DNA of 64,000 bases from an uncultured Rickettsiales bacterium (GTDB lineage Bacteria > Pseudomonadota > Alphaproteobacteria > Rickettsiales > SXRF01). The notes beneath the pieces were generated by a model that did not search any database, had not been told where the DNA came from, and saw nothing but the letters and a program-made list of their open reading frames with translations. Of this stretch, positions 7,379-48,098 are shown one piece after another. Numbering within the stretch: the first letter of the stretch is position 1; each line of letters starts with the position of its first letter. The stretch covers positions 102,229 through 166,228 of the forward strand of contig CAZHUC010000005.1 in assembly GCA_964535825.1 (NCBI GenBank), given 5' to 3'. The translations under genes and the position numbers were made by a program.

Positions 7379-7387
7379 TTATCCACA
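7379..7387 (+). promoter_or_regulatory. Perfect DnaA-box 9-mer TTATCCACA, 51 nt upstream of rpsF
   Basis: Exact match to the consensus DnaA box. Extended context TTTTATCCACAGGC is identical to the copy at 40417-40430. Confidence 0.45.
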
Positions 7388-26757: not shown

Positions 26758-26758
26758 A

Positions 26759-30407: not shown

Positions 30408-30417
30408 GGCATGCGAT

Positions 30418-31047: not shown

Positions 31048-32486
31048 GCACACCGTTTGATGATGATAAGTTACGCGAAGAATGTGGTATCTTTGGTATC
31101 ACCGGACATGCCGATGCCTCGGCACTCACTGCACTCGGATTGCACGCACTTCAACATCGCGGACAGGAAGCGGCCGGCATCGTAAGCTGCGATGGCGCAC
31201 AGTTTTATACCCACCGTGCACTCGGCCTTGTTGGCGATAATTTCAACTCTGCCGATATTATCAATAAGCTGAAAGGCCACATGGCCATCGGCCATAATCG
31301 TTACTCCACCACAGGCGATACATTGCTGCGTAACGTGCAGCCTTTATATGGCGATTTCTCATTCGGCGGCCTTGCGGTTGCCCATAACGGCAACCTCACC
31401 AACGCCATGACGCTGCGCAAACAGCTGATCGATGTGGGCTGCCTGTTCCAATCCACCTCTGACACGGAAGTCATCGTGCATCTTATCGCACTTTCCAAAC
31501 AAAGCTCGATCGAAGACAGGCTGTATGATGCACTTTCCCGCGTCGAAGGCGCATATTCGCTCGTGGTGCTTTGTAATGATCGCCTGATCGGTGTGCGTGA
31601 CCCGCTGGGCGTACGTCCGCTGGTGCTTGGCAAGCTGGGTGATTCCATGCTGCTTGCTTCTGAGACCTGCGCATTCGATATCGTTGGTGCAGAATATGTG
31701 CGCGATATTGAACCTGGTGAAATGGTGGTGATCACACCGCAAGGCATAAGATCATTGAAGCCGTTTGCAAAAACACAGCGCCGCTTCTGCATTTTCGAAT
31801 ATGTATATTTTGCGCGCCCTGATTCCATCGCTGAAGGACAGAACGTATACGAAACGCGCCAGCGTATCGGCGCAGAACTGGCGCGTGAAGCAGGCATCCC
31901 TGCTGATGTGGTCGTGCCTGTGCCGGATTCCGGTATTCCTGCCGCACTGGGTTATGCGAAGGCATCAAAAATTCCGTTCGAGCTTGGTATCATCCGCAAT
32001 CATTATGTGGGGCGTACCTTCATCGAACCGTCCGATCATGTGCGCCATCTCGGCGTGAAGCTTAAACATAATGGCAACCGTGCCGTGCTGGAAGGCAAGC
32101 GCGTTATATTAGTCGATGACTCTATCGTTCGCGGCACAACGTCGAAGAAGATCGTCAGCATGGTGCGCGAAGCAGGTGCAAAAGAAGTGCATATGCGTAT
32201 CGCGAGCCCTCCCACAACCCATTCATGCTTCTACGGTGTGGATACTCCCACGCGTGACCAGCTAATGGCCGCTAAACATGATGTGCGTGAGATGGCACGC
32301 CTCATTGGCGCAGACAGCCTTGCGTTCGTATCGCTTGATGGCATGTATAAGGCCGTGTCCGGCAAAAGCCGCGATGCAAATACCCCGCAATTCTGCGATG
32401 CCTGCTTCTCAGGCGAATACCCGATCCCACTCACTGATTTTGAACAAGCCGACGCCGGTAAAAAAGATCTGTTCTCTGAAGTCTGA
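31044..32486 (+). CDS. purF: Amidophosphoribosyltransferase
   Basis: Ntn-Cys context EECGIFGI, PRTase motif VILVDDSIVRGTT, and Fe-S Cys ligands near the C-terminus. Confidence 0.95.
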   Translation: MSTPFDDDKLREECGIFGITGHADASALTALGLHALQHRGQEAAGIVSCDGAQFYTHRALGLVGDNFNSADIINKLKGHMAIGHNRYSTTGDTLLRNVQPLYGDFSFGGLAVAHNGNLTNAMTLRKQLIDVGCLFQSTSDTEVIVHLIALSKQSSIEDRLYDALSRVEGAYSLVVLCNDRLIGVRDPLGVRPLVLGKLGDSMLLASETCAFDIVGAEYVRDIEPGEMVVITPQGIRSLKPFAKTQRRFCIFEYVYFARPDSIAEGQNVYETRQRIGAELAREAGIPADVVVPVPDSGIPAALGYAKASKIPFELGIIRNHYVGRTFIEPSDHVRHLGVKLKHNGNRAVLEGKRVILVDDSIVRGTTSKKIVSMVREAGAKEVHMRIASPPTTHSCFYGVDTPTRDQLMAAKHDVREMARLIGADSLAFVSLDGMYKAVSGKSRDANTPQFCDACFSGEYPIPLTDFEQADAGKKDLFSEV

Positions 32487-32489
32487 TTC

Positions 32490-33197
32490 ATGACCAGCTT
32501 ATTACATAATCGTATCGCACTGGTTACGGGTGCATCACGTGGCATTGGCGCGGCGGTAGCCAAACGCTTTGCATCTGAAGGCGCGCATGTGATCCTTGCC
32601 GCCCGCAATGTAGCAGGGCTGGAAGAAACCGATGATGCGATACGCGCGGCCGGTGGCAATGCCACACTGGTGCAGCTGGATATCACCAAACCTGACCAGA
32701 TCGAGATACTTGCAAAGCAAACGGCACAACGCTTTGGCAAGCTGGATATTCTGGTGGGCAATGCCGGTATACTGGGCGAGCTCTCCCCCATCGCGCATAC
32801 CACACCGGAACATTGGGACAGGGTGATGAATACGAACCTCACCGCCAACTTCCATCTAATGCGCCATTTTGATCCATTACTGTTATGCTCGGATGCGCCA
32901 CGCGTAATGTTCGTTACCTCGGGTGTTGGCTCGCATGTGCGCGCTTACTGGGGCGCATATGCCGTAAGCAAAGCAGCCCTTGAGATGATGACACGGCTCT
33001 ATGCGGCCGAGAACGAAAACTCAAAACTCAAAGTGAACATCATCAATCCCGGGCAGGTGCGCACGCATATGAACGCACAGGCCTTTCCTGGCGCAGATCC
33101 GATGACACGGCCCGAGGCAGACAGCATCACAGATATATTCGTGACGCTTGCAAGCCCTGCCTGCACCGCGAATGGCGAAATGTTCAACGCGCAGTGA
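32490..33197 (+). CDS. Short-chain dehydrogenase/reductase
   Basis: TGASRGIG, NAG, YAVSKAA. Confidence 0.85.
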   Translation: MTSLLHNRIALVTGASRGIGAAVAKRFASEGAHVILAARNVAGLEETDDAIRAAGGNATLVQLDITKPDQIEILAKQTAQRFGKLDILVGNAGILGELSPIAHTTPEHWDRVMNTNLTANFHLMRHFDPLLLCSDAPRVMFVTSGVGSHVRAYWGAYAVSKAALEMMTRLYAAENENSKLKVNIINPGQVRTHMNAQAFPGADPMTRPEADSITDIFVTLASPACTANGEMFNAQ

Positions 33198-33237
33198 TGC
33201 ATTGTTTTTCCACAATAAACATGATAGTTATTCGTGT

Positions 33238-33936
33238 ATGGAAACATTGATATTCGCCTTTACGCGCGCACTGCGTTCGCTATTCGCCCCTGGCATGATA
33301 CGAGTGTTCGTATACTCTGTGCTGCTTACCATTGTGGTGTTGTGCGCATTCTGGATGGGCGCAAGCAAAACACTGGTGTGGATGTTCGACCGGCCAGCAA
33401 CCGCACATCTGCCATTTGACATTACCGGCCTCATCATCATGGGCGCGACCGGTGTGCTAGCGTGGTTCTTATTCCCCGGCATCATGCCCATCATCGTGAA
33501 TTTCTTTGATGACAAGATCGCAAACCTTATCGAACGCGCCGATTATCCGCATAGCCAGCCGATCGCCAATCCACCTTTCTGGCCAGAGTTCTGGCATGAC
33601 GCCAAGTTCTCACTCACGGTCATTGGCATTAACCTGCTGGTATTGCCGCTCTATCTCATCCCGGTCATCAACGCGATTCTGTTTTACTGGCTGAACGGTT
33701 ATCTGCTCGGCAAGGAATTCTTCATCATGACCGCGCGCCGGCACATCCCGCTTGTGGAAGCTAAGAAGCTATGGAACACGAAGAGCCGCCTCATCACGGT
33801 TGCCGGCATCGCGCTTACCTTCATGGCAACGCTGCCAGTGCTCAACCTGTTCGCACCCTTCTGGGGCATTGCAGTGATGACGCATATCTACCACCGCAGT
33901 AAACAGGGCGCAGAGATATTGCCGCCGTATCGGTAA
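33238..33936 (+). CDS. EI24/CysZ-like membrane protein
   Basis: Four or more TM helices and the family-like pattern (LPLYLIPVINAILFYWLNGYLLGKEFF). Start trimmed to METLIFAF (ATG 33238 checked). Confidence 0.55.
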   Translation: METLIFAFTRALRSLFAPGMIRVFVYSVLLTIVVLCAFWMGASKTLVWMFDRPATAHLPFDITGLIIMGATGVLAWFLFPGIMPIIVNFFDDKIANLIERADYPHSQPIANPPFWPEFWHDAKFSLTVIGINLLVLPLYLIPVINAILFYWLNGYLLGKEFFIMTARRHIPLVEAKKLWNTKSRLITVAGIALTFMATLPVLNLFAPFWGIAVMTHIYHRSKQGAEILPPYR

Positions 33937-35160
33937 TTACGCCGCCTTCTTCATGCGTTCGCGCAGGCCTTCATCGAGCTTATCTAAGAACTGCGTGGTG
34001 GTAAGCCATTTTTGATCCTTGCCGATAAGTGCGGCGAGGTCTTTGGTCATGAAGCCTGCTTCCACCGTATCCACGCATACTTTCTCGAGCAACTCGGCGA
34101 AGGCTTTTACATCCGGCGTGTTGTCGAATTTTGCGCGGTAGGAAAGCCCACGCGTCCACGCAAAGATGGATGCGATCGGGTTGGTAGAGGTTTCCTTGCC
34201 TTTCTGGTGTTCGCGGTAATGGCGTGTCACTGTACCATGCGCAGCTTCCGCTTCAATCGTGTTGCCATCCGGTGTCATCAGCACGGAGGTCATAAGGCCC
34301 AGTGAACCAAACCCCTGCGCCACCGTGTCAGATTGCACGTCGCCATCGTAATTCTTACAGGCCCATACGAATCCACCCGACCACTTTAGCGCCATCGCCA
34401 CCATGTCATCGATCAGGCGGTGCTCATAGGTGAGCTTTGCTTTTTCAAACTGCGTTTTGAATTCCTTGTCGTACACTTCCTGGAAGATGTCCTTGAAGCG
34501 GCCATCATAGACTTTGAGGATGGTGTTCTTGGTAGACAGGAATACCGGGTAATTGCGCATCAGCCCATAATTCAGGCAAGCGCGCGCGAACCCGCGAATG
34601 GATTCATCGAGGTTGTACATGCCCATCGCCACCCCTGCGTTCTTGAATTCAAACACATCATGGGTGATAGGCGCGCCGCCATCCTTTGGTGTAAAGGTCA
34701 TGGTGAGTTTACCTGCACCCGGAATTTCGAAATCGGTGGCGCGGTATTGATCACCGAACGCATGACGGCCAATGACGATTGGCTGCGTCCAGCCCGGCAC
34801 CAGGCGCGGCACGTTCTTGCAGATGATGGGTTCACGGAACACCGTGCCATCGAGAATGTTGCGGATCGTACCATTCGGTGATTTCCACATCTTCTTGAGC
34901 TTAAATTCTTCCACACGCGCTTCATCCGGCGTAATGGTCGCGCATTTCACGCCCACGCCATATTTCTTGATGGCCTCACCCGCTTCGATGGTGATCTTGT
35001 CTTCGGTTTCATCGCGCTTCTGGACAGAAAGATCATAATATTTCAGATCCACATCCAGATATGGCAAAATGAGTTTATCCTTGATGAACGCCCAGATGAT
35101 GCGGGTCATTTCATCGCCGTCGATCTCGACGATGGGGGTCTTTACTTTAATTTTAGCCAT
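33937..35160 (-). CDS. icd: NADP-dependent isocitrate dehydrogenase (about 405-aa eukaryote-like type)
   Basis: [39 protein letters not shown]. Confidence 0.95.
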
Positions 35161-35220
35161 AGTTTCTCCTGTTTTCTTGCACCCAACATAAAGCCTGCGG
35201 ACAAAAATGCAATGCCCAGA

Positions 35221-36642
35221 CTACCTGCCAGCGCGGCTAATGCGAACCATCAATGGATGGCGCAATTTAAGGGAAATGCCCGGCTGCATGCAGTTTCCTG
35301 CTTTATTCAGTGCGACAACATCGAACCATGGGGCAAGCTTGGCAATGATGGTGCGTGCTTCCATATCCACAAAACTATGGCCGCTGCATTTGCGCGGCCC
35401 AAGCGAGAACGGGAAATATACGCCCGGATCTATTGCTTTTTCCGCATCCCCCATAAAACGCTCGGGAATGAAACTGTTAGGATCAGACCACCATTTCGGA
35501 TTACGATGCATGGCAATATGCGGAATGGTAATAACTGTTCCTGCAGGTACTTTGAGTTCACCGAAGGAATCATCTTCTATTGCTTGCCTGCCTGAAAGCC
35601 AGAATGGCGGATAGATCCGCATGGTCTCTTTTATGACCGCAGACAAGAAATTCATCTGCTGCAGCATCTCATAGGTAAGAGCCATACTATCCGGCTGAGC
35701 AAGGCATGGTGCATGACGTACCACATCCTCACGTAATTTTTGTTTGATATCTGTATGATCATCCAGCGCATACCATATCCACTGCATCATGATGGATGTG
35801 CTCTCGAATCCAGCAAATACCATGCTTACCGCATGATCGCGTATATCTTTGTCAGTAAAATATTCTGGATTTTCCTGCTGCGCTTTCATAAGCAATGCAA
35901 GAAAGTTCTTGGGATCATGCAGGCCTTGTTTCTTGTATCGGTCAACAAGTTGCAGAAGCTGTGCATCAATATAACGTACAGCATCCCGGAAGCGGAAATA
36001 AGACGGAAAACACAGATATTTGCGCAGGTCTATTTTGGGAAATACCCTTATATTTTTCAGGTAGTCGATAAGTACTGAATACGCGGCATGCAGGTCATGT
36101 ACCGTTTTGTCATCAATATCCTTCCCAAAGATAGACTTAAGTATGACCTCGGTGGTTATCCGTGCCATTTCTTCGGTAATGTTGATATCTGCGCTACCAT
36201 GCTCAGTGAGCTTCAGCCATTTGTTCTTGTATTTCTCGCTTACGTCATTCACCACATCGAAATAATCGTGGCTGATGCGCTCCCGGCTGAACATCGGCTG
36301 CACTTTAGGCCGATCCCTGCGCCATTTCTCGCCATTGCTGGTAAGAAGCCCAAGGCCAATGGCTGATTCAAACCGTATATAGGCATCGCTTTTCCTGTAA
36401 TTTTTATGATTATCAAGCAGAACATGCCTTACCAGATCAGGATGATTTAACAGCAAGGTACGCTGCCCCATGATCTTCACCGCGATGACATCACCATCCA
36501 GCCGTGAGTGTTCCATCACTGTGCCAAGACTATCGCGGATAATAGGAATAGCCAGCCCGATAAAAGGAAGGCCATTCAACTCAACAACCTTGTAGTTCTT
36601 GTGTGGTGCTGACATAGCCAAAAAATGACTGTTACGTATCAA
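35221..36642 (-). CDS. Cytochrome P450
   Basis: Heme loop FSLGPRKCSGHSF, ETMRIYPP (ExxR), FIPERF, and I-helix AGFESTS. The track start is TTG at 36642. An ATG alternative at 36615 (MSAPHK) is equally possible. Confidence 0.85.
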   Translation of the reverse strand: MIRNSHFLAMSAPHKNYKVVELNGLPFIGLAIPIIRDSLGTVMEHSRLDGDVIAVKIMGQRTLLLNHPDLVRHVLLDNHKNYRKSDAYIRFESAIGLGLLTSNGEKWRRDRPKVQPMFSRERISHDYFDVVNDVSEKYKNKWLKLTEHGSADINITEEMARITTEVILKSIFGKDIDDKTVHDLHAAYSVLIDYLKNIRVFPKIDLRKYLCFPSYFRFRDAVRYIDAQLLQLVDRYKKQGLHDPKNFLALLMKAQQENPEYFTDKDIRDHAVSMVFAGFESTSIMMQWIWYALDDHTDIKQKLREDVVRHAPCLAQPDSMALTYEMLQQMNFLSAVIKETMRIYPPFWLSGRQAIEDDSFGELKVPAGTVITIPHIAMHRNPKWWSDPNSFIPERFMGDAEKAIDPGVYFPFSLGPRKCSGHSFVDMEARTIIAKLAPWFDVVALNKAGNCMQPGISLKLRHPLMVRISRAGR

Positions 36643-36701
36643 TTAAACATGGTTATATGTTGTAATACATGTGTTTATAGCAACATGTGCAGGGGAAGTA
36701 A

Positions 36702-38255
36702 ATGAACCAGTCGCAAGCATGCGTCGAACGCTGGAAAACAGCGCTACCCGAAGGAAGGGTGTTGCCTGCCGAAAGACTTGCCGACTATCTGGATAATTGC
36801 CTCGGCATCAGCCGTTCTATTATCGCCGCCATACAGCCAATCAATGAAGCTGAAATAATCACCATTGTAGCTATCGCCCGCGAATTCCAGATACCTCTAT
36901 ATACGATCAGCACCGGTCACAACTGGGGATACGGAAGCAGCTTACCTGCAGCGGATAACTGCGCGATACTGGATCTCTCACGCATGAATAAGATATTGGC
37001 GATGGATGCCGAGCTTGGCCTTATTACCCTGGAGCCCGGCGTAACACAGCAACAGCTGTTTGATTATTTCAAGCAGGAGAAGCTGGGTTATTACGTACCC
37101 ACCACCGGCGCGGGCGGCACTGCAAGTATTGTGGGTAATGCACTGGAACGCGGGTTCGGTGTAGCCCCAATAGAAGATCATTTCCAAGCCATCACGTCCC
37201 TACGGGCTGTGTTACCTGATGGCACAATCTATGAATCACCGCTCGCCGCCATGGGCGCAAAACAGGCCGGTGTCTGGAAATGGGGGGTTGGCCCATATCT
37301 CGACGGTATGTTCAGCCAGTCCAATATGGGTATCGTAACATCTCTGCAGATCTCGCTGGCAAAAAAACCGGAACACACGGAATTATTTGTATTCACAATA
37401 AAAAAGAATCGCGCCGTAGAAGAGTTCATCCCTGCGGTAAGCAGCCTGCTAAGTGATGCGATCGGCGATGTTGGCAGCATCAAACTCTTCAACAGCGACT
37501 ATCAGCAACTACTCCCCGACACGAGTACCCGCAATGGATTACTACAGGATGCGCATTGGAAAGGGTTTGGAATATTCCGCTCCACGAACAGCATGGCTTC
37601 TGGCATGCGCAAGGAGATCGCTCGCCGTCTAAGACCATATTGCAGCCGTATCATTTTTACGAATGAGCGCAGATTGAAATTACTCAGGCAGTGCGCGGGT
37701 ATTATTCCTGGCGTAACAGGCCAGACCATTCGTACACAAATTGATCAGGGACAATATTTGCTGGACCTGGCGCACGGCATTCCACGTCCTGATGCCATGC
37801 GCATATTGTATCAACACATGCCGTTGCCTTCAGATATCGCTTCTGACCCCGTAAAGAACGGTATTGGGCTTATCTGGTATCCACCCATTATTCCATTGAA
37901 GACAGAGCATGTTAAAAATCTGGTAGATATGACGCACGATATACTTACCAAACATGGCTTTCCTGCAGCCATATTATTTACCACCGCCAATGATAAATGT
38001 GCTATCGGCGCAATACCTATCATTTATAAAAAGCCACAGGATGCGGAGAAAGCCATGCGCTGCTATGACGAGTTGGTAAAACAAGGCATCGCGATCGGAT
38101 GTCCACCTTACCGGCTTAATGTGCAGGCCATGCAGCATCTTTCGTCATATGCAGGCACAGGATATTGGAAGACGGTGGCCAATATCAAAGCTGCTATCGA
38201 CCAGCAGCATGTATTATCCCCCGGTCGCTACGAGGCGATCAAGCGCTGGCTGTAG
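36702..38255 (+). CDS. FAD-linked oxidase (PCMH/VAO-type FAD_binding_4 fold)
   Basis: 517 aa. N-terminal FAD-binding region: IVAIAREFQIPLYTISTGHNWGYGS, LDLSRMNKIL, ITLEPGVTQQQL. Confidence 0.75.
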   Translation: MNQSQACVERWKTALPEGRVLPAERLADYLDNCLGISRSIIAAIQPINEAEIITIVAIAREFQIPLYTISTGHNWGYGSSLPAADNCAILDLSRMNKILAMDAELGLITLEPGVTQQQLFDYFKQEKLGYYVPTTGAGGTASIVGNALERGFGVAPIEDHFQAITSLRAVLPDGTIYESPLAAMGAKQAGVWKWGVGPYLDGMFSQSNMGIVTSLQISLAKKPEHTELFVFTIKKNRAVEEFIPAVSSLLSDAIGDVGSIKLFNSDYQQLLPDTSTRNGLLQDAHWKGFGIFRSTNSMASGMRKEIARRLRPYCSRIIFTNERRLKLLRQCAGIIPGVTGQTIRTQIDQGQYLLDLAHGIPRPDAMRILYQHMPLPSDIASDPVKNGIGLIWYPPIIPLKTEHVKNLVDMTHDILTKHGFPAAILFTTANDKCAIGAIPIIYKKPQDAEKAMRCYDELVKQGIAIGCPPYRLNVQAMQHLSSYAGTGYWKTVANIKAAIDQQHVLSPGRYEAIKRWL

Positions 38256-38261
38256 AATTTA

Positions 38262-40301
38262 TTAGAACGTTGCACCCAGTGTCAGATAAAAGCTTCTTCT
38301 GATCTCTGTTGCAGAAATATAGGTAAACGGTGTAAATTCCTGATGCCTGTCATCAAACAGATTCTGACCGACCAGACTTACTTCCAACCCATCCGTTACA
38401 CGGTATGAAAGTCGCGTATCAAAGCGCTGGTATCCATTGATATTGGCGCGCCCTTTCAGGTCATCATTCAGATACAGCATATTGGTCATCTCGAAGCCAT
38501 TTCCGAAGGCATAGGTCGAGGAGAGATTGAACATGTGTTTAGGCTGTTTTCCTATGACGGAATAAAAATCTGTCTCGTCCTTCTGGTCGATCGTAAGCCC
38601 AAGATAACTATAAGCACCTGTCAGCTGCCAGTTGGCGGTTACATTCCACTTGGCAGATGTTTCAAGCCCATAGGAATGACCCGTCTTGCTGTTTGCTGTG
38701 GTAAGCGGCCATAACAAGTATGTGCCCAGGTTCACAGGATCGCCGAACCGGCCGTTAAATAATTTGTCATAATCATTATAGAACGCAGCAATATCGATCG
38801 ATGAGCTCTTGGTTGGCTGAATACGGTAGCCCAACTCATAGGCCGTGAGTTCCTCGGAATCAACGGCATCCGCACCTTGCGCTGCCACCAGTGTTGGGAT
38901 ACCCGCGAAGAATGGCGCGCTACCTGGCGGCAGGATAGCAAGGGTCAAATGACCATCTTCAGTGAAGCGACTTGGCGTATGCACTGCTCGCGATACTGAC
39001 GCCCATACCGTCTGGTTATCGGTCGGCAGCCATGAAATGCGTGCACTCGGCTGAATTTCAACACCTGTGTAATCATTATGCTCGAACTTTGAACCCAGCG
39101 TCAGGAACAGTTCATCTTCATAAAGCGGCATTTTATCCTGCACGAAGGCGTTGAACAGATTATCCGTACGACGTTTTGGCGTAAGTGCATATTGTTCAGA
39201 CACCGGATCATTTTCACTTAAGATCAGGCGATAGCCTGCACCCCACACCACCTCATGCCCTGCCCAGCGTGACCAGGCATGCTGGAAGTCCATATCGATG
39301 GTACTGGTCGTATCATTGAAGAATGCCGTTTTGCGTGCAGCATTATCAACATACATCTGCAAGGAGGCTTCCGAATCGGCTGCGAACCTCTCATCCCATC
39401 TGCCTAACAGGTTAAATCCGTTCGCACGCACCCCCTCAGACTGACGGGCAAAAGCGGCTGCACCTAATTCAGGAAATGCATAACTCGTATCACCATCAAG
39501 ATAATACATATCGCCCTGTACAGTCATTTTGCCGGATTCAGTCATTTTGGAATCGCTGCGGAAACCAGCCTGGCTGCGCCTCCATGAATCACCCGCACCC
39601 GCACCTTGCAGTGTACTCTGGGAATCATAAGCAACTTCTTTAGCGTACATGCGTATATAACTGTCATCACCCGTTTTCATGCCATAACGGCCACCGGCAA
39701 TACCATTGATCTGCGTACCGAACGACGCGGTAGCAAGGCCGCCTTGTGTATCTTTTGAATCTTTGGTGATGATATTGATCACACCGTTCACCGCGTTCGC
39801 GCCCCAGAGCGTTGCCCCCGGGCCACGGATCACTTCGATGCGCTCGATGTCTTGCAGCATTGTGTCCTGCACGTCCCAGATCACGCCTGAGAATAATGGT
39901 GAATACACGGTACGTCCGTCGATCAGCACTAAAAGCTTGTTTGAGAACTGATCATTGAAGCCACGCGATGTAACGGTCCAGTCACGCGCGCCCGCTTGTG
40001 TTACAGTGATACCAGGCACCATACGCAGCACTTCTGGTATAACGGTAGCGCCAGAACGGCGAATATCTTCTTGTGTAATTACGAAAATAGCGGCAGCTGC
40101 TTCGGTTTCTTTTTCGGCTTTCTTGGAAACGGAGGTAACTTCTACTTCTGCCAGTTCTCTCAGTGAAAGATTCAGCAGATCATCTGTATTCAGTCCTTCC
40201 GCTGCATTGGCATGTGTGCCTGCGCAAATAATTGCAACGGCCAGTGATGCTGCTTTAGCCGCATTGCGCACACCCTGTATGAACAGGTTCTCCGAAAACA
40301 T
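38262..40301 (-). CDS. TonB-dependent outer-membrane receptor
   Basis: Signal peptide ..AGTHANA. Plug motifs (VEVTS, IEVIRGPGATLWGANAVNGVINIITK). Long beta-barrel ending in LTLGATF. I prefer ATG 40301 (GGGGAG 5 nt upstream) to the track GTG at 40313. Confidence 0.9.
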   Translation of the reverse strand: MFSENLFIQGVRNAAKAASLAVAIICAGTHANAAEGLNTDDLLNLSLRELAEVEVTSVSKKAEKETEAAAAIFVITQEDIRRSGATVIPEVLRMVPGITVTQAGARDWTVTSRGFNDQFSNKLLVLIDGRTVYSPLFSGVIWDVQDTMLQDIERIEVIRGPGATLWGANAVNGVINIITKDSKDTQGGLATASFGTQINGIAGGRYGMKTGDDSYIRMYAKEVAYDSQSTLQGAGAGDSWRRSQAGFRSDSKMTESGKMTVQGDMYYLDGDTSYAFPELGAAAFARQSEGVRANGFNLLGRWDERFAADSEASLQMYVDNAARKTAFFNDTTSTIDMDFQHAWSRWAGHEVVWGAGYRLILSENDPVSEQYALTPKRRTDNLFNAFVQDKMPLYEDELFLTLGSKFEHNDYTGVEIQPSARISWLPTDNQTVWASVSRAVHTPSRFTEDGHLTLAILPPGSAPFFAGIPTLVAAQGADAVDSEELTAYELGYRIQPTKSSSIDIAAFYNDYDKLFNGRFGDPVNLGTYLLWPLTTANSKTGHSYGLETSAKWNVTANWQLTGAYSYLGLTIDQKDETDFYSVIGKQPKHMFNLSSTYAFGNGFEMTNMLYLNDDLKGRANINGYQRFDTRLSYRVTDGLEVSLVGQNLFDDRHQEFTPFTYISATEIRRSFYLTLGATF

Positions 40302-40320
40302 ACTACTCCCCACCTAAGGA

Positions 40321-40329
40321 TTATCCACA
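40321..40329 (+). promoter_or_regulatory. Perfect DnaA-box 9-mer TTATCCACA, 20 nt upstream of the TonB-receptor ATG
   Basis: Exact consensus match, read directly. Confidence 0.45.
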
Positions 40330-40390
40330 CCTAGGGCTAAAGTAATATGTTTAAAAATACATTAATAATAGAAGACGTTAGTAACGACGA

Positions 40391-41164
40391 CTACTCTACC
40401 AGTTGCAACTGCGGCATTTTATCCACAGGCGGCAATCCGCTTTGCTGGCTGGTTTTCGTTTTATCTATATCAGAAGTTGCATCAGCGGCTCTGTTAAATA
40501 TGTCGCTAAGCTGTGACACGGTGATGTACCATTTCACATCCGGATGAATAGGATTTTCCGGCACTTCGATATCGTTGCGAATCTTTGTGGTCTTCACATC
40601 AAAGCTATTAGCGATCAAGCGCCAGTTACGAGCCAGTGTCAGGGTAGATTTAGCGAACAGATAATGGATCTGTTCATTGATGACCTTGTCATACATCACC
40701 TTGCACAGACCATAGAAGATATTCTCATCACTGCCGGTATCTTCCATAATAGCAAAACGAGAGATCTCGCCATGCTTGAAGCTGTTAAGAGGCAACTCTG
40801 GAAATACGTTGCGCAGAACAAAGCCGTTGGTCTCCATTGGCATATCCCACATTTCATCAGCTTCCCTGATGGTAAGGCGGCAACCGCCAAGACATAACTT
40901 GCCACGACGTGCGATCAACACATGACCGATCTTGTCGTGCACGTCTTCCTGACCGTTGAATTCATCAGTGTGGAAGATCTTGCGATACATGGTTTCACGC
41001 AGGCGGTAATACTGGTGCAGCATGCCGCGATCATTGGTGAACTCATACACAATAGGATCATTGCCACCGAATGGCTTAGCCAGACGATTCGCCATGATGG
41101 CTTGCATCGTCTCGAAAAAATTATTCGACTTAGAGTTGTCTTTATAGAGCGTAGGCTTTGTCAT
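40391..41164 (-). CDS. LuxI/FeeM-fold (GNAT-superfamily) N-acyltransferase; putative N-acyl amino acid or acyl-homoserine-lactone-type synthase
   Basis: 257 aa. YYRLRETMYRKIF...GQEDVHDKIGHVLIA..G.L.GGCRLT...HGEISRFAI matches the R..(V/M)(F/Y)....E.D..D...H/Y....G..RL....E.SRF skeleton of autoinducer/N-acyl-amino-acid synthases. The tail of about 45 aa is low-complexity. Confidence 0.6.
   Translation of the reverse strand: MTKPTLYKDNSKSNNFFETMQAIMANRLAKPFGGNDPIVYEFTNDRGMLHQYYRLRETMYRKIFHTDEFNGQEDVHDKIGHVLIARRGKLCLGGCRLTIREADEMWDMPMETNGFVLRNVFPELPLNSFKHGEISRFAIMEDTGSDENIFYGLCKVMYDKVINEQIHYLFAKSTLTLARNWRLIANSFDVKTTKIRNDIEVPENPIHPDVKWYITVSQLSDIFNRAADATSDIDKTKTSQQSGLPPVDKMPQLQLVE
40419..40427 (+). 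promoter_or_regulatory. Perfect DnaA-box 9-mer TTATCCACA inside the 3' end of the acyltransferase gene
   Basis: Exact consensus match. Extended TTTTATCCACAGGC is shared with the rpsF upstream copy. Confidence 0.4.
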
Positions 41165-41208
41165 AAATAGTTAACCGTTGTTAATCGAATTAACTGAATA
41201 TTAGCAAT

Positions 41209-41217
41209 TTATCCACA
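41209..41217 (+). promoter_or_regulatory. Perfect DnaA-box 9-mer TTATCCACA, 45 nt upstream of the acyltransferase ATG
   Basis: Exact consensus match in the 247-bp A+T-rich spacer. Confidence 0.45.
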
Positions 41218-41354
41218 ATTCAATAGGTAATTTTTGCCTATATATCGACTATTCTACCACCACACCCCTGTGTATGTCTCCTCCAACTTCCTTAATATTA
41301 TCGAATTTCTGCTATTTGTGGCTTTTATGTTACTCACAGATATTTAGATGTAAC

Positions 41355-41381
41355 CTGTGGATATATATAATTTATCCACAG
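41355..41381. promoter_or_regulatory. 27-bp perfect palindrome CTGTGGATA-N9-TATCCACAG (two head-to-head DnaA-box-like sites around an all-A/T spacer)
   Basis: Read directly. The right arm contains perfect TTATCCACA (41372-41380). The left arm is ATATCCACA on the other strand. Spacer is TATATAATT. Confidence 0.55.
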
Positions 41382-41411
41382 ATTATTCTATTCCGGTAGC
41401 ATCCATATGGA

Positions 41412-41942
41412 TCATTTTGCTTCTGAAATACCCTTCAGATTAGAAAGCCCCTTCTCGAACTGCTCGCCTACCATCTTCTCGCAATTAAAGATTAACCCGA
41501 CCGCCTTGCCCATAAAATTATTTTTGCCGTGCATGCTCCATGTAACCTGTGTCTGACCGCCAATTTCCTTGAAAGCAAATTCAGCTGTGCTCTGGCTGGC
41601 CATGGGTTCTTTGAAATCCATATCGAACCGCACAAGTTCATTGTCATGGCTTTCCGCGATGGTCATGCTGCCAACACCTACGTCCATATTACCTGCCCAG
41701 CTCATCTTCGCGCCAACACCTGCATCGGGTCCTTCAAAATTGCTGGTGGCATTCGGATCTAATTTTTCCCAGGGCGACCATGCTTTCCACTCATGCAGGT
41801 TATTCACATGCGCAAAAATATCGCTCGCGGGTGCGTCTATCACAGTGGTGCGGGAGACACGGAATTCATCCGGCTGCTGATAAGCAACAATGGCAAACGC
41901 GGCTATAAGAAATACCACACCGGTCAAAAGTTTTTTGAACAT
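41412..41942 (-). CDS. Exported or anchored SRPBCC (START/Bet v1-like) ligand-binding protein
   Basis: 176 aa from ATG 41942 (GGAGA 6 nt upstream; the track GTG start is at 41978). N-terminal hydrophobic MFKKLLTGVVFLIAAFAIVA, then a polyketide-cyclase/SRPBCC-like body (W..W.PW). Confidence 0.65.
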   Translation of the reverse strand: MFKKLLTGVVFLIAAFAIVAYQQPDEFRVSRTTVIDAPASDIFAHVNNLHEWKAWSPWEKLDPNATSNFEGPDAGVGAKMSWAGNMDVGVGSMTIAESHDNELVRFDMDFKEPMASQSTAEFAFKEIGGQTQVTWSMHGKNNFMGKAVGLIFNCEKMVGEQFEKGLSNLKGISEAK

Positions 41943-41994
41943 ATATTTTCTCCATTTTTTAAATTCACAATATTTCACCCATTAGCAGGCTATC

Positions 41995-43674
41995 TTATTC
42001 ATTACAAACAACTAGCCATCCCCTGTAACGAACTATTAGCCCTACAATGGGCGCAGTAATCTCTACGTTGAAATGAAAATTGCCTGATTCTTCGGACTCA
42101 TAAGAATATCCTCCAGGCGCAAGAAACAGGGGAAGCGGTATACCCATAATGTTCCAGCGACGAATAATCAGCTGCAATTTGCCATCGGCAACGACTACAG
42201 CCAATCCAAAAGCAAACATACCAAAACGCTCGCAAACCAGACGTTCATAGGACTTTTCCCCTTCCGACTGGATACTTAAGAAAGATTTCCCCGCAAAGGT
42301 TCGACGCCAATATTCTTTACCATCTCTCAGGCTAAAATCTACACATACCGGCACGCTCTCACCCTCAAGAGGAAAACCAAATAGAGTTGCGATAAAACAA
42401 GCTATCTTGCCTTTTCCGCGCTCAACTTTGGCTTCACCAAGAGCCCGCTTGAATCCTGTTAGATCATGCATCTCTCGTATGGTCTCAGGCAGTTGCTGCC
42501 ATACATCGCCCAATATACGACTATACAGTGGTGATGTTTTATTTATCATCTCCCTGTAGCCTGTATAAATGGTACGCCGCTTAAAAAGCTCCTCGTAATC
42601 AGCAAGCATTACATCATGTGTCGCGGGTCTTGCACCTGGTGTGGGTAGCTTCTCCATAAGCATATGCCTAATGATTGCCTCTATCGCCATCGAGGGTATT
42701 AATGGACCATCATTGCCTTCAGCCAGCAGATGCCATGAACGTGTAATTTTCTTATCGCTTTCATCAACACCTTCCACCTCAACAAACATACCGCCGCGAT
42801 GCTCACCCCAACGAATAATATTGATGACGTGGTAAAATAGTTTGCTGAAAGGCAATAACGATGGAACGACTTTCCAACGCACCAGCCATGCTAGACCATT
42901 CAAGGCACGATGCAAAATTTCAGGCACAGGCCCTGCTCCCATCCAAATGGAGTCCAATGTTGGCCAAGATTCCGGGATCACTTGCAGATCGGGTACATCT
43001 ACCAGTGAAAATCGAATATTATGTAGTGGTAATCTGCCTGGCACTGCGATGGTATAACGTATGGTTTCTGTAAGAGCATGACCTATTGATGGCCTGCCGC
43101 CGCGAGTCAGCTTCACCGGTTGACCGGCGTAACCAGCAATCGCACGAATGACATTTTCTCCTACACCAGCGTAAGGTGATGGCGCGATACCGCCTTTGAT
43201 AGAGCTAAGCCTGAGGCCTTGTGCTAGCTCCCGAACCACAGCCGCAGTCAGAACAGGAAAACTACTTACGCCAGATAATAAGAATATATTTTGGGCTTTT
43301 GCATCAGCATCAAACTTGCTCACACCTTTTACAAAATCTGAACCATCTGCCAGATCAAGATAATGTATACCGAGTACAATACATGCCTTAATTACATGGT
43401 AAGGCTCATGTCCATAATTCTGAAAAGGACCTGTGGCATCCACCACTACATCAGGGGCAATCTCCTTGATCTGTTTTTCGAGGTCACCATTACGATCGAA
43501 GCTGCGAGGAATTAATGTAGCCTCACCACGCAGTGTACGACAAAAAAACTCTGCCTTTTTCAGTGATCTTCCAGCGATAACCATCGTGAGGCGCGGTTCA
43601 TCAGCCAGAAGCTGCACCAATCTGCCACCAAATATACCGTATCCGCCAATAATAAGTAATTTAAGATTTTGCAT
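41995..43674 (-). CDS. Saccharopine-dehydrogenase-like NAD(P)-binding domain fused to a DUF4166-type C-terminal domain
   Basis: N-terminal Rossmann LIIGGYGIFGGRL. C-terminal region ending in FHFNVEITAPIVGLIVRYRGWL, as I recall for DUF4166. 14-nt overlap with the upstream monooxygenase gene. Confidence 0.7.
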   Translation of the reverse strand: MQNLKLLIIGGYGIFGGRLVQLLADEPRLTMVIAGRSLKKAEFFCRTLRGEATLIPRSFDRNGDLEKQIKEIAPDVVVDATGPFQNYGHEPYHVIKACIVLGIHYLDLADGSDFVKGVSKFDADAKAQNIFLLSGVSSFPVLTAAVVRELAQGLRLSSIKGGIAPSPYAGVGENVIRAIAGYAGQPVKLTRGGRPSIGHALTETIRYTIAVPGRLPLHNIRFSLVDVPDLQVIPESWPTLDSIWMGAGPVPEILHRALNGLAWLVRWKVVPSLLPFSKLFYHVINIIRWGEHRGGMFVEVEGVDESDKKITRSWHLLAEGNDGPLIPSMAIEAIIRHMLMEKLPTPGARPATHDVMLADYEELFKRRTIYTGYREMINKTSPLYSRILGDVWQQLPETIREMHDLTGFKRALGEAKVERGKGKIACFIATLFGFPLEGESVPVCVDFSLRDGKEYWRRTFAGKSFLSIQSEGEKSYERLVCERFGMFAFGLAVVVADGKLQLIIRRWNIMGIPLPLFLAPGGYSYESEESGNFHFNVEITAPIVGLIVRYRGWLVVCNE

Positions 43675-44896
43675 GATGCAAATCGTAGTCTGGGTGGATA
43701 TCGCCCGGGTTCATGTGCGTGAACAGGCTGGTTTTAATGCCTGAGAGCGTCCGCACCATTTCGGTTCTGATAAAAGGAAGTTTGCACATAAAACCAAAGG
43801 TCATATCTCGCAACATGGGGCGCAGTGTGGCATCAGACTGGAAGAACGGTGTCAGCCAATGACTGGCGATCTGGTAAAAACGCACATGTTTTTTGCGGCG
43901 CTTTGCATAACTTTTAAGCGCAGCGTTCACGTCTTGGGTTTTATTCAGACAATCCTCCAGCACCATCGCATCCATAAGCCCCATATTCGCTCCCTGCCCC
44001 AGCTGCGGACTGGTCGCGTGTGCAGCATCGCCGATAAATACCAATCGATGGCTAAAACAATTCTTCAGCACCACGTCCCCATAGGTCGCGAAATTCAAAT
44101 CATCCACGGTTTGAAATTGCATAACGAGCGGCTCTACTTCAGGCCATAGCGATATTACATAATCCTGCCATGCTTTTAAACCTTGCTCGCGCCATTGCTC
44201 GTATTCATGCGCACGCAGACTCCAAAAAAAAGCAACGCTTTCGCACGTATCGCCATTCAGTTTTCCCATCGGCATGACACCGATCATGTGATGTGCTTTT
44301 TGATAGCGCTGATACAGCGCGTTCTTGAACATGCCTGCATTATCTTTGCATACGCCCCAGACCGCTGCATATGGATACGGCTTATCTTTCTTTACGCTAG
44401 CGAACTTACGGCGCAGAGGAGAGCGTGCACCTTGCGCATTCACCACCAGATCGAATGGACCATATTGATCCGTTCCGTCAGTGATGAATGGCTTGCTCTG
44501 CGCATCATAGCGTACATCTTCGATGCATGCTGATGTAACGATCGGTATGTGCAGACGCTGCACTTCTTCATATAGCAATGAAAATAATGTGCCACGATAG
44601 ACACCCAACCCGAAGATATGCGGAGCAAGATTATGATAAGAAACATTGAAGATGGTTTTTCCCGTGTGCACTACATGGCCTTGAATCCCATGAATGATAC
44701 TCGAGGCATCAATAGCCGCTTTATCCAACCCAAGCCGCGCAAGCACGGCAAGACCTGTGGGTTGTAGCATCAAACCCGCACCGATAGGACGTGGTGCGTC
44801 GAATCTCTCATAGATGGTTACATCATGGCCGCTCCGTTTAAGGAACGCGGCGGTAGATAAACCGGCTGTACCAGCACCTATGACCGCAATTTTCAT
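43661..44896 (-). CDS. FAD-dependent aromatic-ring-type monooxygenase (UbiH/salicylate hydroxylase-like)
   Basis: MKIAVIGAGTAGLSTA (ATG 44894-44896 checked), GARSPLR, GDAAHATSPQLGQGANMGLMDA. Confidence 0.8.
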   Translation of the reverse strand: MKIAVIGAGTAGLSTAAFLKRSGHDVTIYERFDAPRPIGAGLMLQPTGLAVLARLGLDKAAIDASSIIHGIQGHVVHTGKTIFNVSYHNLAPHIFGLGVYRGTLFSLLYEEVQRLHIPIVTSACIEDVRYDAQSKPFITDGTDQYGPFDLVVNAQGARSPLRRKFASVKKDKPYPYAAVWGVCKDNAGMFKNALYQRYQKAHHMIGVMPMGKLNGDTCESVAFFWSLRAHEYEQWREQGLKAWQDYVISLWPEVEPLVMQFQTVDDLNFATYGDVVLKNCFSHRLVFIGDAAHATSPQLGQGANMGLMDAMVLEDCLNKTQDVNAALKSYAKRRKKHVRFYQIASHWLTPFFQSDATLRPMLRDMTFGFMCKLPFIRTEMVRTLSGIKTSLFTHMNPGDIHPDYDLHHAKS

Positions 44897-44945
44897 GTAG
44901 TCATGACTACACGAATTACCTACCAACTACAATATAAGGGAGAAA

Positions 44946-45022
<77 letters not shown>

Positions 45023-45086
45023 TTTGCTTGAGAAAAAGCAACAAGGAGGCACGGTTTTAGGGGGCATTGGCCTAAAAGTCAAATCA

Positions 45087-45115
45087 TTTGCCGTAATAAA
45101 TACCATAACGGCAAA
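45087..45115 (-). terminator. Hairpin downstream of the diguanylate cyclase gene (possible terminator)
   Basis: 8-bp stem TTTGCCGT/ACGGCAAA with a 13-nt loop. The minus strand continues TGATTTGACTTTT. Confidence 0.35.
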
Positions 45116-45144
45116 TTATGGGATTTCAGGTAGTTAACCCATCC

Positions 45145-46188
45145 TTAATCGGCCGCAGAGCGCGTCACGCAGTTGCGGCCTTTATGCTTGGAAACATAAA
45201 GCGCATCATCGGCGCGCTTCATCAGGGTCGGGAGCGTATCGCTTTCATGGCGGAATTTTGATACGCCCATGGAAACCGTGATCGTACCGAAATTCTCGCC
45301 GGTGTCTTTGCGTTTAAGTTCTTTGCTGGCAAGCGTCGTGCGGATCATATCGGCCACTTTCATTGCCCCTTCAACCGGTGTCTCGGGTAATATCACCACA
45401 AATTCTTCACCACCGAAACGCGCCACCACGTCGCGGCCTTTGAGCACTTCGGTGAGCGTGCGCGCTACGGTCTTCAGCACTTCATCACCCAACAAGTGCC
45501 CGTACTTGTCGTTGAACTTCTTGAAATGATCGATGTCGATCATGATCAGGCAAAGCTCGGTCTGCTTTTCTTTGGCAGCCATTGAAAGCTCATCGTACAT
45601 CTTCTCGAATGTTTTGCGATTGAACACGCCAGTCAGGAAGTCGCGCTGGGCCTCGATCGTCACTTGTTGCAAATTCTTGCGCAGGCTGGTGATCTCTTTT
45701 TTGGATTCTTCCAGTTTTTCTGTGATCTTCTCGCCGCTCTGGCGCAGTGTGGTGGTAGCAGATACCAATTCTTTCAGTGTGCTTTTGATATTCTCATCTT
45801 CAAAATCGACACTGATCTTTTCGATATACTGGTCAACGTCCTTGTTATAACTCTTCTGCTCGCCGGAAAAATCCGTGACGACACGCAGCACATCCTGCAA
45901 CAACCTCTGTGCGGCAAGCGACGCATCATCGAGCACTTTCTGGTTACGATTGCCGATGATGTATTTGTTGTAGAGATATTTGTTGGTATCGAGCGTGAAG
46001 GGCAGTTTGTTCTTGTTGATATTGTCGATCTCGGCGACGAGGTCTTTATTCTTGCCTTCAGCGTAGATGAACCACACCGCATAATTCTCCGGTGTTGGCC
46101 GTATTTTGTGCACATCCATCAGCGACATGGCCTTTTGTGCCAGTTCGTGATCATTATTCTCAGTAGATGCAGATTGCGGGGTGGTCAT
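45145..46188 (-). CDS. Diguanylate cyclase (GGDEF domain) with uncharacterised N-terminal coiled-coil/sensor region
   Basis: RDFLTGVFNR, DIDHFKKFNDKYGH, active site GGEEF, RADDALYVSK. Confidence 0.85.
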   Translation of the reverse strand: MTTPQSASTENNDHELAQKAMSLMDVHKIRPTPENYAVWFIYAEGKNKDLVAEIDNINKNKLPFTLDTNKYLYNKYIIGNRNQKVLDDASLAAQRLLQDVLRVVTDFSGEQKSYNKDVDQYIEKISVDFEDENIKSTLKELVSATTTLRQSGEKITEKLEESKKEITSLRKNLQQVTIEAQRDFLTGVFNRKTFEKMYDELSMAAKEKQTELCLIMIDIDHFKKFNDKYGHLLGDEVLKTVARTLTEVLKGRDVVARFGGEEFVVILPETPVEGAMKVADMIRTTLASKELKRKDTGENFGTITVSMGVSKFRHESDTLPTLMKRADDALYVSKHKGRNCVTRSAAD

Positions 46189-46224
46189 TGCACCAAGATT
46201 AGCGGTTTATAGTAAAAAAAGCAT

Positions 46225-47793
46225 TTATTTCACAGGTTTGCCATCGCCCGGCAGCCCCATATTTTGCCACATGTTGGTTATCTTATCAACAACCTCCTGA
46301 TTCATAACGATCTTCTTGCCCCATTCGCGACTGGTCTCGGGGGGGATTTTATCCGTAGCGTCTAAACCAGCCTTGCCACCCATGCCTGATTCGGGGGAAG
46401 CGAAGTCGAGATAATCGATGGGTGTCGCATCAATCAACGTAATATCCCGAATCGGGTCCATACGCGTGGAAACCGCCCACATCACCTGCTTCCAGTCCCG
46501 TACATTAATGTCATCATCCACCACAATTATCCATTTTGTATAAATAAACTGGCGCAAGTAAGACCATATCCCCATCATGATGCGCTTGGCATGCCCCGGA
46601 TAGGCTTTTTTGATGGATACCACCGCGATACGATATGAACACCCCTCAGGCGGCAAATAAAAATCCACGATCTCGGGGAATTGCTGCTGCAAGAGCGGAA
46701 TGAATACCTCATTCAGTGCCTCCCCCAGCACCGATGGTTCATCCGGCGGATGGCCGGTATGCGTGCTTAAATAAATAGGGTTCTTGCGCATGGTGATGGC
46801 GGTGATGGTAAAGACCGGAAACTTCTCCACCGAATTATAAAATCCCGTATGGTCACCGAATGGTCCTTCATCGCCGTACTCATCGAGCGATACATAGCCC
46901 TCCAGCACAATTTCCGCCTCGGCAGGCACTTTGAGCGGCACGGTCTTGCAATCTACCAGCTCCACCTTCTCGCCGCGCAACAGGCCGGCATATTGATATT
47001 CACTCATGGTATCCGGCACAGGTGTTACCGCTGCCAGAATGGTTGCAGGGTCACAGCCTATTACAGCTGCTGCCGGTAGCGGCTCGCGCTTTTCCTTGCC
47101 CCAGCGTGCGTAATGCTGCGCCCCGCCGCGATGCTTCAGCCAGCGCATGAGCGTTGTATTTTTACCCGTCACCTGCAGACGGTATATGCCCAAATTAAAA
47201 TTATCTTCGGCTTTATCACTTGGACCTTTGGTTACAATGAGAGGCCATGTAATGAGCGGCGAAGCATCATCCGGCCAGCATGTCTGGATAGGGAATTTAC
47301 TAAGATCGATATCATCACCCGTAAGCACCACTTCCTGACATGGTGCAGCCTTTACAGTTTTAGGCTTCATCGCCATGGCGGTTTTTACCAGCGGCAATAA
47401 TTCGAGCGCCTCTTTCCAGCCGCCTGGGGGCTCAGGTTGGCGCAGGAATGCAAGTTTTTCACCCAACTCACGCAGCTCGTGTGGCTCACGCCCCATACCC
47501 CACGCCACACGCTCTATTGTGCCAAATAAATTGATGAGCACGGGCATGCTGCTTTGTTTACCTCCGGAATTTTCTGCTGAAAATTCCATGAGGCGCGGCT
47601 CATGGCTGGTACGGCCTGCTGGCCGCACATTCTGTATTACATTCTCGAAGAGCACCGCAGGTCCGCCCTCTGCGATGAGTCTCCTGCCGATCTCCGTCAT
47701 CTCCAGATGGGTAGATACAGGCTCACTCACCCGCACCAAACGGCCGTTCTTTTCAAGATGAGCAATGAAATCGCGCAGGGAGTTATAGGTCAT
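46225..47793 (-). CDS. ubiD: UbiD-family decarboxylase (4-hydroxy-3-polyprenylbenzoate decarboxylase)
   Basis: Collinear with E. coli UbiD as I recall it (LRDF...[44 protein letters not shown]). Start trimmed to [14 protein letters not shown] (ATG 47791-47793 checked). Confidence 0.9.
47551..47640. repeat. Hairpin-rich segment of about 90 bp, apparently inserted in frame in ubiD
   Basis: Encodes [30 protein letters not shown] where E. coli UbiD has about 4 residues (LFEN-PKGY-SMPVL). Contains hairpins GGAATTTTC-TGCT-GAAAATTCC (47566-47587), CATGAG-GCGCGG-CTCATG (47587-47604) and GTACGGCC-TGCT-GGCCGCAC. Confidence 0.5.
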
Positions 47794-47795
47794 AC

Positions 47796-48098
47796 TTACC
47801 TTTGTAGCGCATGAATGCAGGCATATATCGCCAACCAGAAGCATAGCACCAGTTGCAAGACTTGCATTATGCGGACTACTTTCGAGTTTTTAATCCATCG
47901 GCTAATTAACGCTAAAATGCATGCTGCAATAAAAAGCATTCCAGCATATGCGGAACCTAAAAATAAGGCAAAGCCAGCTCTTTCACCACCCACAGACAAA
48001 TTAAAAAATAGAATAATACCCCAAGAAATCCAAGGGAAAATCATGGTCATGACCATGAGATACGATGAATGCAGAAATTTCATATTTCTACGCAACAT
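47796..48098 (-). CDS. Small membrane protein, 100 aa, unknown function
   Basis: ATG (48096-48098 checked). Three hydrophobic helices. A+T-rich. Packed between the GNAT gene and ubiD with 1-2-nt gaps. Confidence 0.45.

Follow-up and report, generated by a model that had tools for sequence, protein, structure and literature searches.

DnaA-box words at the upstream regions of a FeeM-like acyltransferase gene and a TonB-dependent receptor gene in an uncultured Rickettsiales bacterium are conserved or recurrent in related loci

DnaA acts as a transcription factor, with regulons that have been mapped in few model species and that consist mostly of cell-cycle and nucleotide genes. Here we analyse a cluster of DnaA-box 9-mers at a locus encoding a divergent FeeM-like N-acyltransferase and a TonB-dependent receptor in an uncultured Rickettsiales bacterium. 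The locus lies in a 64,000-nt stretch of contig CAZHUC010000005.1 (positions 102,229 to 166,228 of the forward strand; this whole stretch is hereafter called the window, and all coordinates are window positions), and it is compared below with homologous loci referred to by L numbers. Protein identity to the window acyltransferase locus is 78% for L005, 63% for L006, 65% for L030 and 58% for L031.

The gene strand is the minus strand for all relevant genes. The receptor gene (38262-40301, minus strand) encodes 679 amino acids (aa) with plug and barrel Pfam domains; its start is ATG 40301, which stands behind GGGGAG, and the GTG at 40313 given in the list of open reading frames (ORFs) falls within that Shine-Dalgarno sequence. 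The receptor scores 640.5 bits (E 2.8e-192) against NF053590, the TOL_0244 family, just under the curated cut-off of 645. The founder of this receptor family is induced 7-fold on a long-chain alkane in Thalassolituus (PMC6304351). The acyltransferase gene (40391-41164, minus strand; ATG 41164, 257 aa) is tentatively assigned to the FeeM-like, GNAT/LuxI-fold N-acyltransferases through the Pfam matches of its homologues: the window protein has no Pfam match of its own, while 17 of 26 aligned homologues match PF21926 FeeM (best E 2.8e-5) and 5 of the 26 match Acetyltransf_5. All 103 homologues come from uncultured Alphaproteobacteria/Rickettsiales or from metagenomes. A PDB sequence search with the acyltransferase family profile returned insignificant matches only, LuxI-type synthases among them (E 0.46).

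Exact copies of TTATCCACA are found on the plus strand at 40321-40329, 40419-40427, 41209-41217 and 41372-41380, each of which reads TGTGGATAA on the gene strand, and an inverted copy with one mismatch, ATATCCACA, is present at 41356-41364 on the minus strand. The segment 40321-41380 thus holds four perfect and one one-mismatch match to the DnaA-box sequence class (TTATCCACA or the relaxed TTWTNCACA). An earlier note on this DNA, made by eye from the letters, had reported the four same-orientation copies within 1.06 kb, the inverted copy, the distances of the boxes to the two start codons and a chance expectation of about 0.5 copies, and all of this holds: the expectation is 0.57 in dinucleotide shuffles and 0.47-0.61 under Markov models of order 1-3, rising to 2-3 under higher-order models. 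The same note had found a single further perfect copy, at 7379 (plus strand), and had missed a second at 21841-21849 (minus strand). The six perfect boxes observed in the window were matched by 0 of 100 shuffles. A total of 1,333 9-mers (strands collapsed) occur four or more times in the window; TGTGGATAA packs four copies into the smallest span of all, 1,051 nt, and the runner-up is a CAG repeat. Since the sequence shared among copies is limited to the 9-mer, plus a few flanking bases in some pairs, the copies do not constitute a dispersed repeat element.

Two of the boxes form an inverted pair distal to the acyltransferase gene. Distal box a (41372-41380, minus strand), which opens the pair, is a perfect TGTGGATAA situated 208-216 nt ahead of the acyltransferase ATG; distal box b (41356-41364, minus strand), the one-mismatch ATATCCACA, follows 7 nt from it. 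Read on the gene strand (41380-41356), the pair is TGTGGATAA-N7-ATATCCACA, with its CACA ends pointing outward. Across the window and four related loci (58-78% protein identity) it takes the form TGTGGATAA-N7-9-(A/T)TATCCACA within decayed flanks. Box a is unchanged in L005, L006 and L030 and is also present in L031, with diverging flanks; for box b, ATATCCACAGG is unchanged in L005, L006 and L030, and L031 carries TTATCCACA, giving TGTGGATAA-N9-TTATCCACA. The spacers within the pair measure 7, 7, 8, 8 or 9 nt and are unrelated in sequence between loci.

The pair sits at the upstream end of a decayed gene. By tblastn, residues 264-296 of the L030 methyltransferase match 41365-41267 (E 1e-4, 52% identity), and a 3' remnant of an LCM-type S-adenosylmethionine (SAM) methyltransferase gene with two in-frame stops extends over 41249-41365 on the minus strand. 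The window keeps only the last ~40 codons of this gene, which in L007, L009, L010, L012, L014, L030 and L059 is intact (~300 aa, PF04072) and immediately precedes the acyltransferase gene; the window's lineage has lost the methylation step. The earlier note had treated 41165-41411 (32.4% GC) as a plain spacer and as the most A+T-rich one in the window, and neither description survives: it contains the methyltransferase remnant, and it ranks second among 247-nt stretches, behind 12981-13227 (30% GC), which lies in a gap of ~450 nt between ORFs (end 12813, start 13259). In L030 the box pair is located within the still-intact methyltransferase ORF, and in the window, L005 and L006 within the dead gene. 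Because the pair has been kept in a dead gene while its spacer and the remnant diverged, selection appears to act on the DNA words themselves. The window, L005, L006 and L030 also agree in how far apart the distal and proximal boxes stand, 162-163 bp.

The proximal box is embedded in a conserved module (41170-41241, minus strand) upstream of the acyltransferase gene, and we infer from conservation across homologous loci that this module is the promoter of the gene. It begins with a palindrome, ATAGG-N9-CCTAT (41223-41241), overlapped by a -35-like TTGAAT (41218-41223); a 12-nt variable slot and a conserved ATTGCTAATATT block (41197-41208) come next, and a leader containing GTTAAT-TCG-ATTAAC (41180-41194) and TTAAC (41170-41174) precedes the ATG. 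Of the 48 homologous loci, 27 have the core arrangement YAGG-N8-11-CCY..TTG; it stands 74-94 nt before the ATG in 25 of these and at a greater distance upstream in the other two. The slot box, a perfect TGTGGATAA at 41209-41217 (minus strand), 45 nt upstream of the acyltransferase ATG, stands directly after TTGAAT and before the ATTGCTAATATT block, that is, between the conserved TTG and the ATTGCTAATAT block. It occupies the same slot in the same orientation in the window, L005, L006 and L030, and in ~20 other loci the slot is filled by unrelated sequence of equal length.

Several other readings of this region were set aside. The ATAGG-N9-CCTAT palindrome looks like a protein operator rather than an RNA stem, as the variants in L017, L024 and L037 break pairs of a putative RNA hairpin without compensation. 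The TAGG..TTGC stretch is not taken as a sigma-54 promoter, since its GG-to-GC distance is 15 nt, not 10. A plus-strand match TTTAGA-17-TATAAT that overlaps the box pair, obtained in the promoter scan, is not conserved in L005 or L006 and is taken as chance. The leader 41170-41194 (minus strand) carries GTTAAT/ATTAAC/TTAAC repeats, an observation that extends to the leaders of L008, L012, L020, L022, L027, L029, L050 and L054; the TTAA motifs are spaced at about 9-11 or 19-21 nt. Nine of the 48 homologous leaders contain the full CtrA consensus TTAA-N7-TTAAC, which the window leader, with its N5/N6 spacing, lacks; the TTAAC repeats are possibly a CtrA-type response-regulator site.

The two remaining perfect boxes lie on the receptor side. 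One (40419-40427, minus strand), 118 nt upstream of the receptor ATG as given in the earlier note, is not intergenic: it sits in the 3' end of the acyltransferase ORF (..P-V-D-K.., codons V-D-K). The other (40321-40329, minus strand) is in the receptor leader, 20 nt upstream of ATG 40301, between the receptor Shine-Dalgarno sequence and a conserved AT-rich element, ATTAATGTATTTTTAAACATATTACTTTAG (40337-40366, minus strand). This element, which follows the acyltransferase stop, precedes the receptor Shine-Dalgarno sequence and is conserved in L005, L006, L009 and L030, is likely a separate receptor promoter or operator. Boxes 40321 and 40419 themselves are specific to the window's lineage and absent at those positions in L005, L006 and L030; at the position of box 40321, L005 and L030 carry TGTGCACAC or TATGCACAC. 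Within the receptor coding region, a perfect TGTGGATAA occurs at the same relative position in L005 (3001-3009, +1798) and L006 (5827-5835, +1826), where the window has TGTTGATAA (39343-39351); the word may be conserved as coding sequence or be an internal site.

Boxes have been lost and gained repeatedly in this gene family. In L060 (65% identity), TTATCCACA fills the same 12-nt slot in reversed orientation, and further boxes are found abutting the palindrome (ATATCCACA, at -88) and at -149 (TGTGGATAA). L059 has a box at -12, and in L025, L052 and L053 a box stands just upstream of the same TAGG..CCTA palindrome. On the receptor side, a box of L030's own follows the acyltransferase stop codon by 6 nt, and in L008 the intergenic DNA ahead of the receptor gene contains TTATCCACA-N6-TGTGTATAA; the receptor-side boxes of the window, L030 and L008 evidently arose independently. 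On the protein tree, loci with boxes are scattered patchily over the window's subclade and turn up again in a distant clade. Among distant homologues (30-50% identity) there are four perfect boxes in 17.7 kb of upstream sequence versus three in 244 kb of flanks, for a Poisson P of about 1e-4 to 1e-3 that depends on an upstream window chosen after seeing the data. In an unbiased census of the 9-mers at -450..-95 of the 48 loci, no word is shared by more loci than TGTGGATAA (10/48), which ties with its own overlapping shift ATCCACAGG.

Conservation or recurrence in orthologous regulatory regions is thus found for the distal pair, the slot box, the reversed L060 box and the junction boxes of L030 and L008. 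Conserved against a decaying background and recurrent at non-homologous positions, the sites are not a product of chance, and the boxes are very probably real regulatory sites. Chance or composition, leaving copies without function, might be invoked on the grounds that one-mismatch boxes are enriched in the window, that higher-order Markov models expect two to three perfect copies and that two of the boxes are not conserved. It would have to explain, however, the tightest four-copy 9-mer cluster in the window, exact conservation in the decaying sequence of four other loci and independent gains, and we consider it highly improbable.

The word itself is the full DnaA consensus, and in 14 of 28 perfect boxes the next base is G, which makes TTATCCACAG, the 10-mer present in the Escherichia coli oriC boxes R1 and R4. 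DnaA domain IV binds as an independent monomer, which dimeric regulators do not. The variable spacing of the pair, the existence of single boxes and the use of both orientations fit independent monomer-type sites and not a rigid dimer site. No transcription factor or regulator gene stands beside the locus in any neighbourhood read, and a global regulator therefore fits; a tblastn search of the window with E. coli DnaA domain IV returned no DnaA-like DNA-binding protein. With moderate confidence, we favour the reading that the five 9-mers are high-affinity monomer-type DnaA sites that control the acyltransferase and receptor transcription units. The earlier note had offered DnaA-dependent control of the flanking genes as one of several options. 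The comparison favours it, as the boxes are tied to promoter regions, kept in decaying sequence and re-created at new positions and in new orientations; DnaA as the binder, the location of the promoter and the sign of regulation are what we infer.

In such a scheme, a protein on the slot box, with the -35-like TTG on one side and the ATTGCTAATAT block on the other, would block RNA polymerase, and steric repression fits because the slot box serves in either orientation. The outward-facing pair 163 bp upstream would provide a second anchor for cooperative or oligomeric binding through DnaA-DnaA contacts, and the window-specific boxes, which flank the AT-rich element 40337-40366, would act on the receptor gene likewise. 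The net effect would be repression when active DnaA is abundant, tying the accessory lipid and uptake functions to the state of replication or growth. Repression is probably the sign of control; activation may apply instead.

DnaA-regulated promoters also include those of E. coli dnaA, nrdAB, mioC and guaB, and the DnaA sites of Caulobacter are usually degenerate. Caulobacter promoters carry one to six DnaA boxes: up to six at hdaA, two at ftsZ and one each at gcrA and mipZ (PMC3193534). The locus described here resembles these Caulobacter and E. coli promoters in having consensus 9-mers, one to several each, in or beside the core promoters, here putative, of non-origin genes, and it shares the alphaproteobacterial setting with Caulobacter. 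It differs from both in that its targets, a FeeM-like synthase and a TOL_0244-like receptor, are not cell-cycle or nucleotide genes and in that a conserved pair, facing outward, lies in the window 163 bp upstream of the slot box; furthermore, unlike the Caulobacter sites, the window boxes are all perfect or near-perfect. The control proposed, with DnaA boxes as promoter operators, is of a known kind at a new gene set. In B. subtilis, DnaA-box clusters outside oriC regulate neighbouring genes; DnaA is bound to them in vivo, and deletion of all six leads to early initiation (PMC3245932). In common with these clusters, strong boxes are grouped here at gene junctions away from the origin. In contrast to them, the boxes are few (five) and follow promoter modules in relatives.

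A different allocation of roles, in which the cluster mainly controls DnaA itself as a reservoir, inactivation or reactivation site and any effects on the genes are secondary, would suit the five strong boxes in 1.06 kb, a density like that of datA and of the B. subtilis clusters, which do both jobs (PMC10380432; PMC3245932), and also the conservation of an oppositely oriented pair. The layout of the boxes speaks against it. The core of E. coli DARS1, as read from the genome, is TTATCCACT-N5-TGTGGATAA-N3-TGTGTATTA, with CACA ends inward, and in DARS it is essential that the boxes stand head-to-head (PMC10380432). The window pair is similar to the DARS1/DARS2 core in consisting of oppositely oriented consensus boxes a few bp apart; unlike that core, in which boxes I and II are head-to-head with a 5-bp gap and a third box follows 3 bp on, the pair has its CACA ends outward, a gap of 7-9 bp and no adjacent third box. 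The likeness to datA is that it, too, groups several strong boxes in about 1 kb at a place other than oriC. For minimal datA, boxes 2, 3 and 7 and an IHF site at defined spacing are required (PMC10380432); there is no match to the IHF consensus WATCAANNNNTTR in 40250-41450, although this consensus may not be that of the host, and the box layout varies between relatives. Box number and positions change from one relative to another and yet stay with promoter modules, and many relatives have no boxes. The datA/DARS-like titrating locus suggested in the earlier note is weakened accordingly, and we consider it quite unlikely that DnaA control is the main role of the cluster. An origin, which that note had already held to be less likely, deserves almost no credence. 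Strong DnaA boxes do lie beside a 32% GC stretch, but that stretch is made up of the conserved promoter module and the pseudogene remnant, cumulative GC skew falls monotonically across the window without the switch that an origin or terminus would produce, no dnaA, hemE, parAB or rep gene is nearby, dnaA being absent from the whole window, and the neighbours are biosynthetic and transport genes.

Other binders of the boxes also have to be considered. Another sequence-specific protein with the same 9-mer preference, for instance a global regulator of the lipid and uptake system, could take the place of DnaA, as the earlier note had also proposed: the boxes are associated with one gene family across distant lineages, as would be expected of a dedicated regulator, and they always stand beside other conserved operators (ATAGG-N9-CCTAT, TTAAC repeats). 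We regard such a factor as unlikely, given that the motif is the exact full-length DnaA consensus, often extended to the R1/R4 10-mer, that the sites are monomer-like and free in spacing and orientation, that no regulator gene is linked to the locus in the neighbourhoods read and the window encodes no protein resembling DnaA domain IV, and that further perfect window boxes lie at unrelated genes, e.g. upstream of rpsF. The 9-7-9 inverted layout of the pair, its location at the upstream edge of the methyltransferase remnant and a tRNA-Ile gene 3.6 kb away are reminiscent of a tyrosine recombinase core (9-bp arms, 7-bp spacer) or of a scar left by the methyltransferase deletion, with the other copies coincidental. 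The chances of this are very slim: the spacer varies from 7 to 9 nt without a conserved overlap sequence, the pair lies inside an intact methyltransferase gene in L030, the single slot boxes are left unexplained, and neither an integrase gene nor a direct repeat of the tRNA end was found.

A number of observations weigh against control of the two transcription units by DnaA boxes. A simple sigma-70 consensus scan does not call the module, in which the best -10 candidate is the weak TATTCA, lacking the final T. An alternative promoter-like match, GAGACA-18-TAGAAT (41251-41280), places the proximal box in the 5' leader, where it would be a leader roadblock. Two of the four perfect boxes (40321 and 40419) are unique to the window, and conservation does not speak for them individually. 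A box is missing from many homologous loci, the close L007, L009, L015, L057 and L058 among them, so box control is not essential to the acyltransferase-receptor system. The post hoc choice of the upstream window behind the four-versus-three enrichment belongs here as well, as does the number of boxes with at most one mismatch in the whole window: 33 are observed versus 13.6 expected, a ~2-fold enrichment that amounts to some background bias, far too small to account for the cluster.

Taken together, the comparative sequence points to a member of a DnaA-type regulon in uncultured Alphaproteobacteria/Rickettsiales, the putative targets being an N-acyl amino acid synthase and a receptor from a family associated with hydrophobic-substrate uptake, and it provides a clear record of site conservation, repeated loss and convergent re-gain. 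If DnaA does bind, replication status would be linked to the production or uptake of a secreted lipid, and the pair, the slot box and the reversed slot box would form a compact natural test case for promoter repression by DnaA. A more far-reaching possibility, to which we give a low probability, is that the system is wired to both DnaA (through the boxes) and CtrA (through the TTAAC repeats), so that lipid synthesis and uptake would be gated by replication state, or that the cluster doubles as the first datA- or DnaA-box-cluster (DBC)-like DnaA reservoir in an alphaproteobacterium.

The genomic surroundings are mixed. Upstream of the acyltransferase gene lie SRPBCC, Sacchrp_dh/DUF4166 and flavin adenine dinucleotide (FAD)-monooxygenase genes and tRNA-Ile, and downstream of the receptor gene are FAD_binding_4, P450 and Iso_dh genes. 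The gene set of 35221-47844 comprises a P450, a FAD_binding_4 oxidase, an Iso_dh-like dehydrogenase, SRPBCC, Sacchrp_dh/DUF4166, the FAD monooxygenase, a UbiD-like decarboxylase and the receptor, and may serve to take up and oxidise a hydrophobic substrate, together with a surfactant or signal of the N-acyl amino acid type. The literature was searched for N-acyl amino acid synthases paired with TonB-dependent receptors, and nothing was found. The remainder of the window is housekeeping: folD, fab genes, rpsF-rplI, dnaB, radA, a split metH, argJ and rpoBC. The tRNA-Ile(GAT) gene (44946-45022, minus strand) is directly upstream of the FAD-monooxygenase/DUF4166/SRPBCC/acyltransferase/receptor run, and GC content is 44-47% in 40000-44000 versus ~50% elsewhere in the window. 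No att-like direct repeats of the tRNA end were found in 30000-45100, and no integrase gene was found. An Rfam gathering scan of the whole window returned tRNA-Ile only, and there is thus no known RNA element in the spacer. Although its GC content is ~50%, the DNA is not of enterobacterial origin, as megablast of 38000-45000 against complete E. coli genomes gave no match.

Box-like words also occur elsewhere in the window. Between the divergent fabD and rpsF genes, ~50 nt ahead of the rpsF ATG (7438), stands the perfect box at 7379-7387 (plus strand, TTATCCACAGG), with rpsF-rpsR-rplI-DUF2232-...-dnaB downstream; it may mark a second DnaA-controlled promoter. On the minus strand of 21650-21849, ATATCCACA at 21650, TTATCCAGA at 21701 and the perfect TTATCCACA at 21841 fall within 200 nt on the same strand, surrounding the convergent 3' ends of a plus-strand ORF and a methyltransferase gene, and this cluster is only marginally significant. 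Finally, methionine synthase appears to be split in the window, with the S-methyl_trans and Pterin_bind domains at 27127-28965 (minus strand) and the B12-binding and activation domains at 24247-25983 (minus strand), and an ion-channel gene (25993-26943) lies between the two halves on the same strand.

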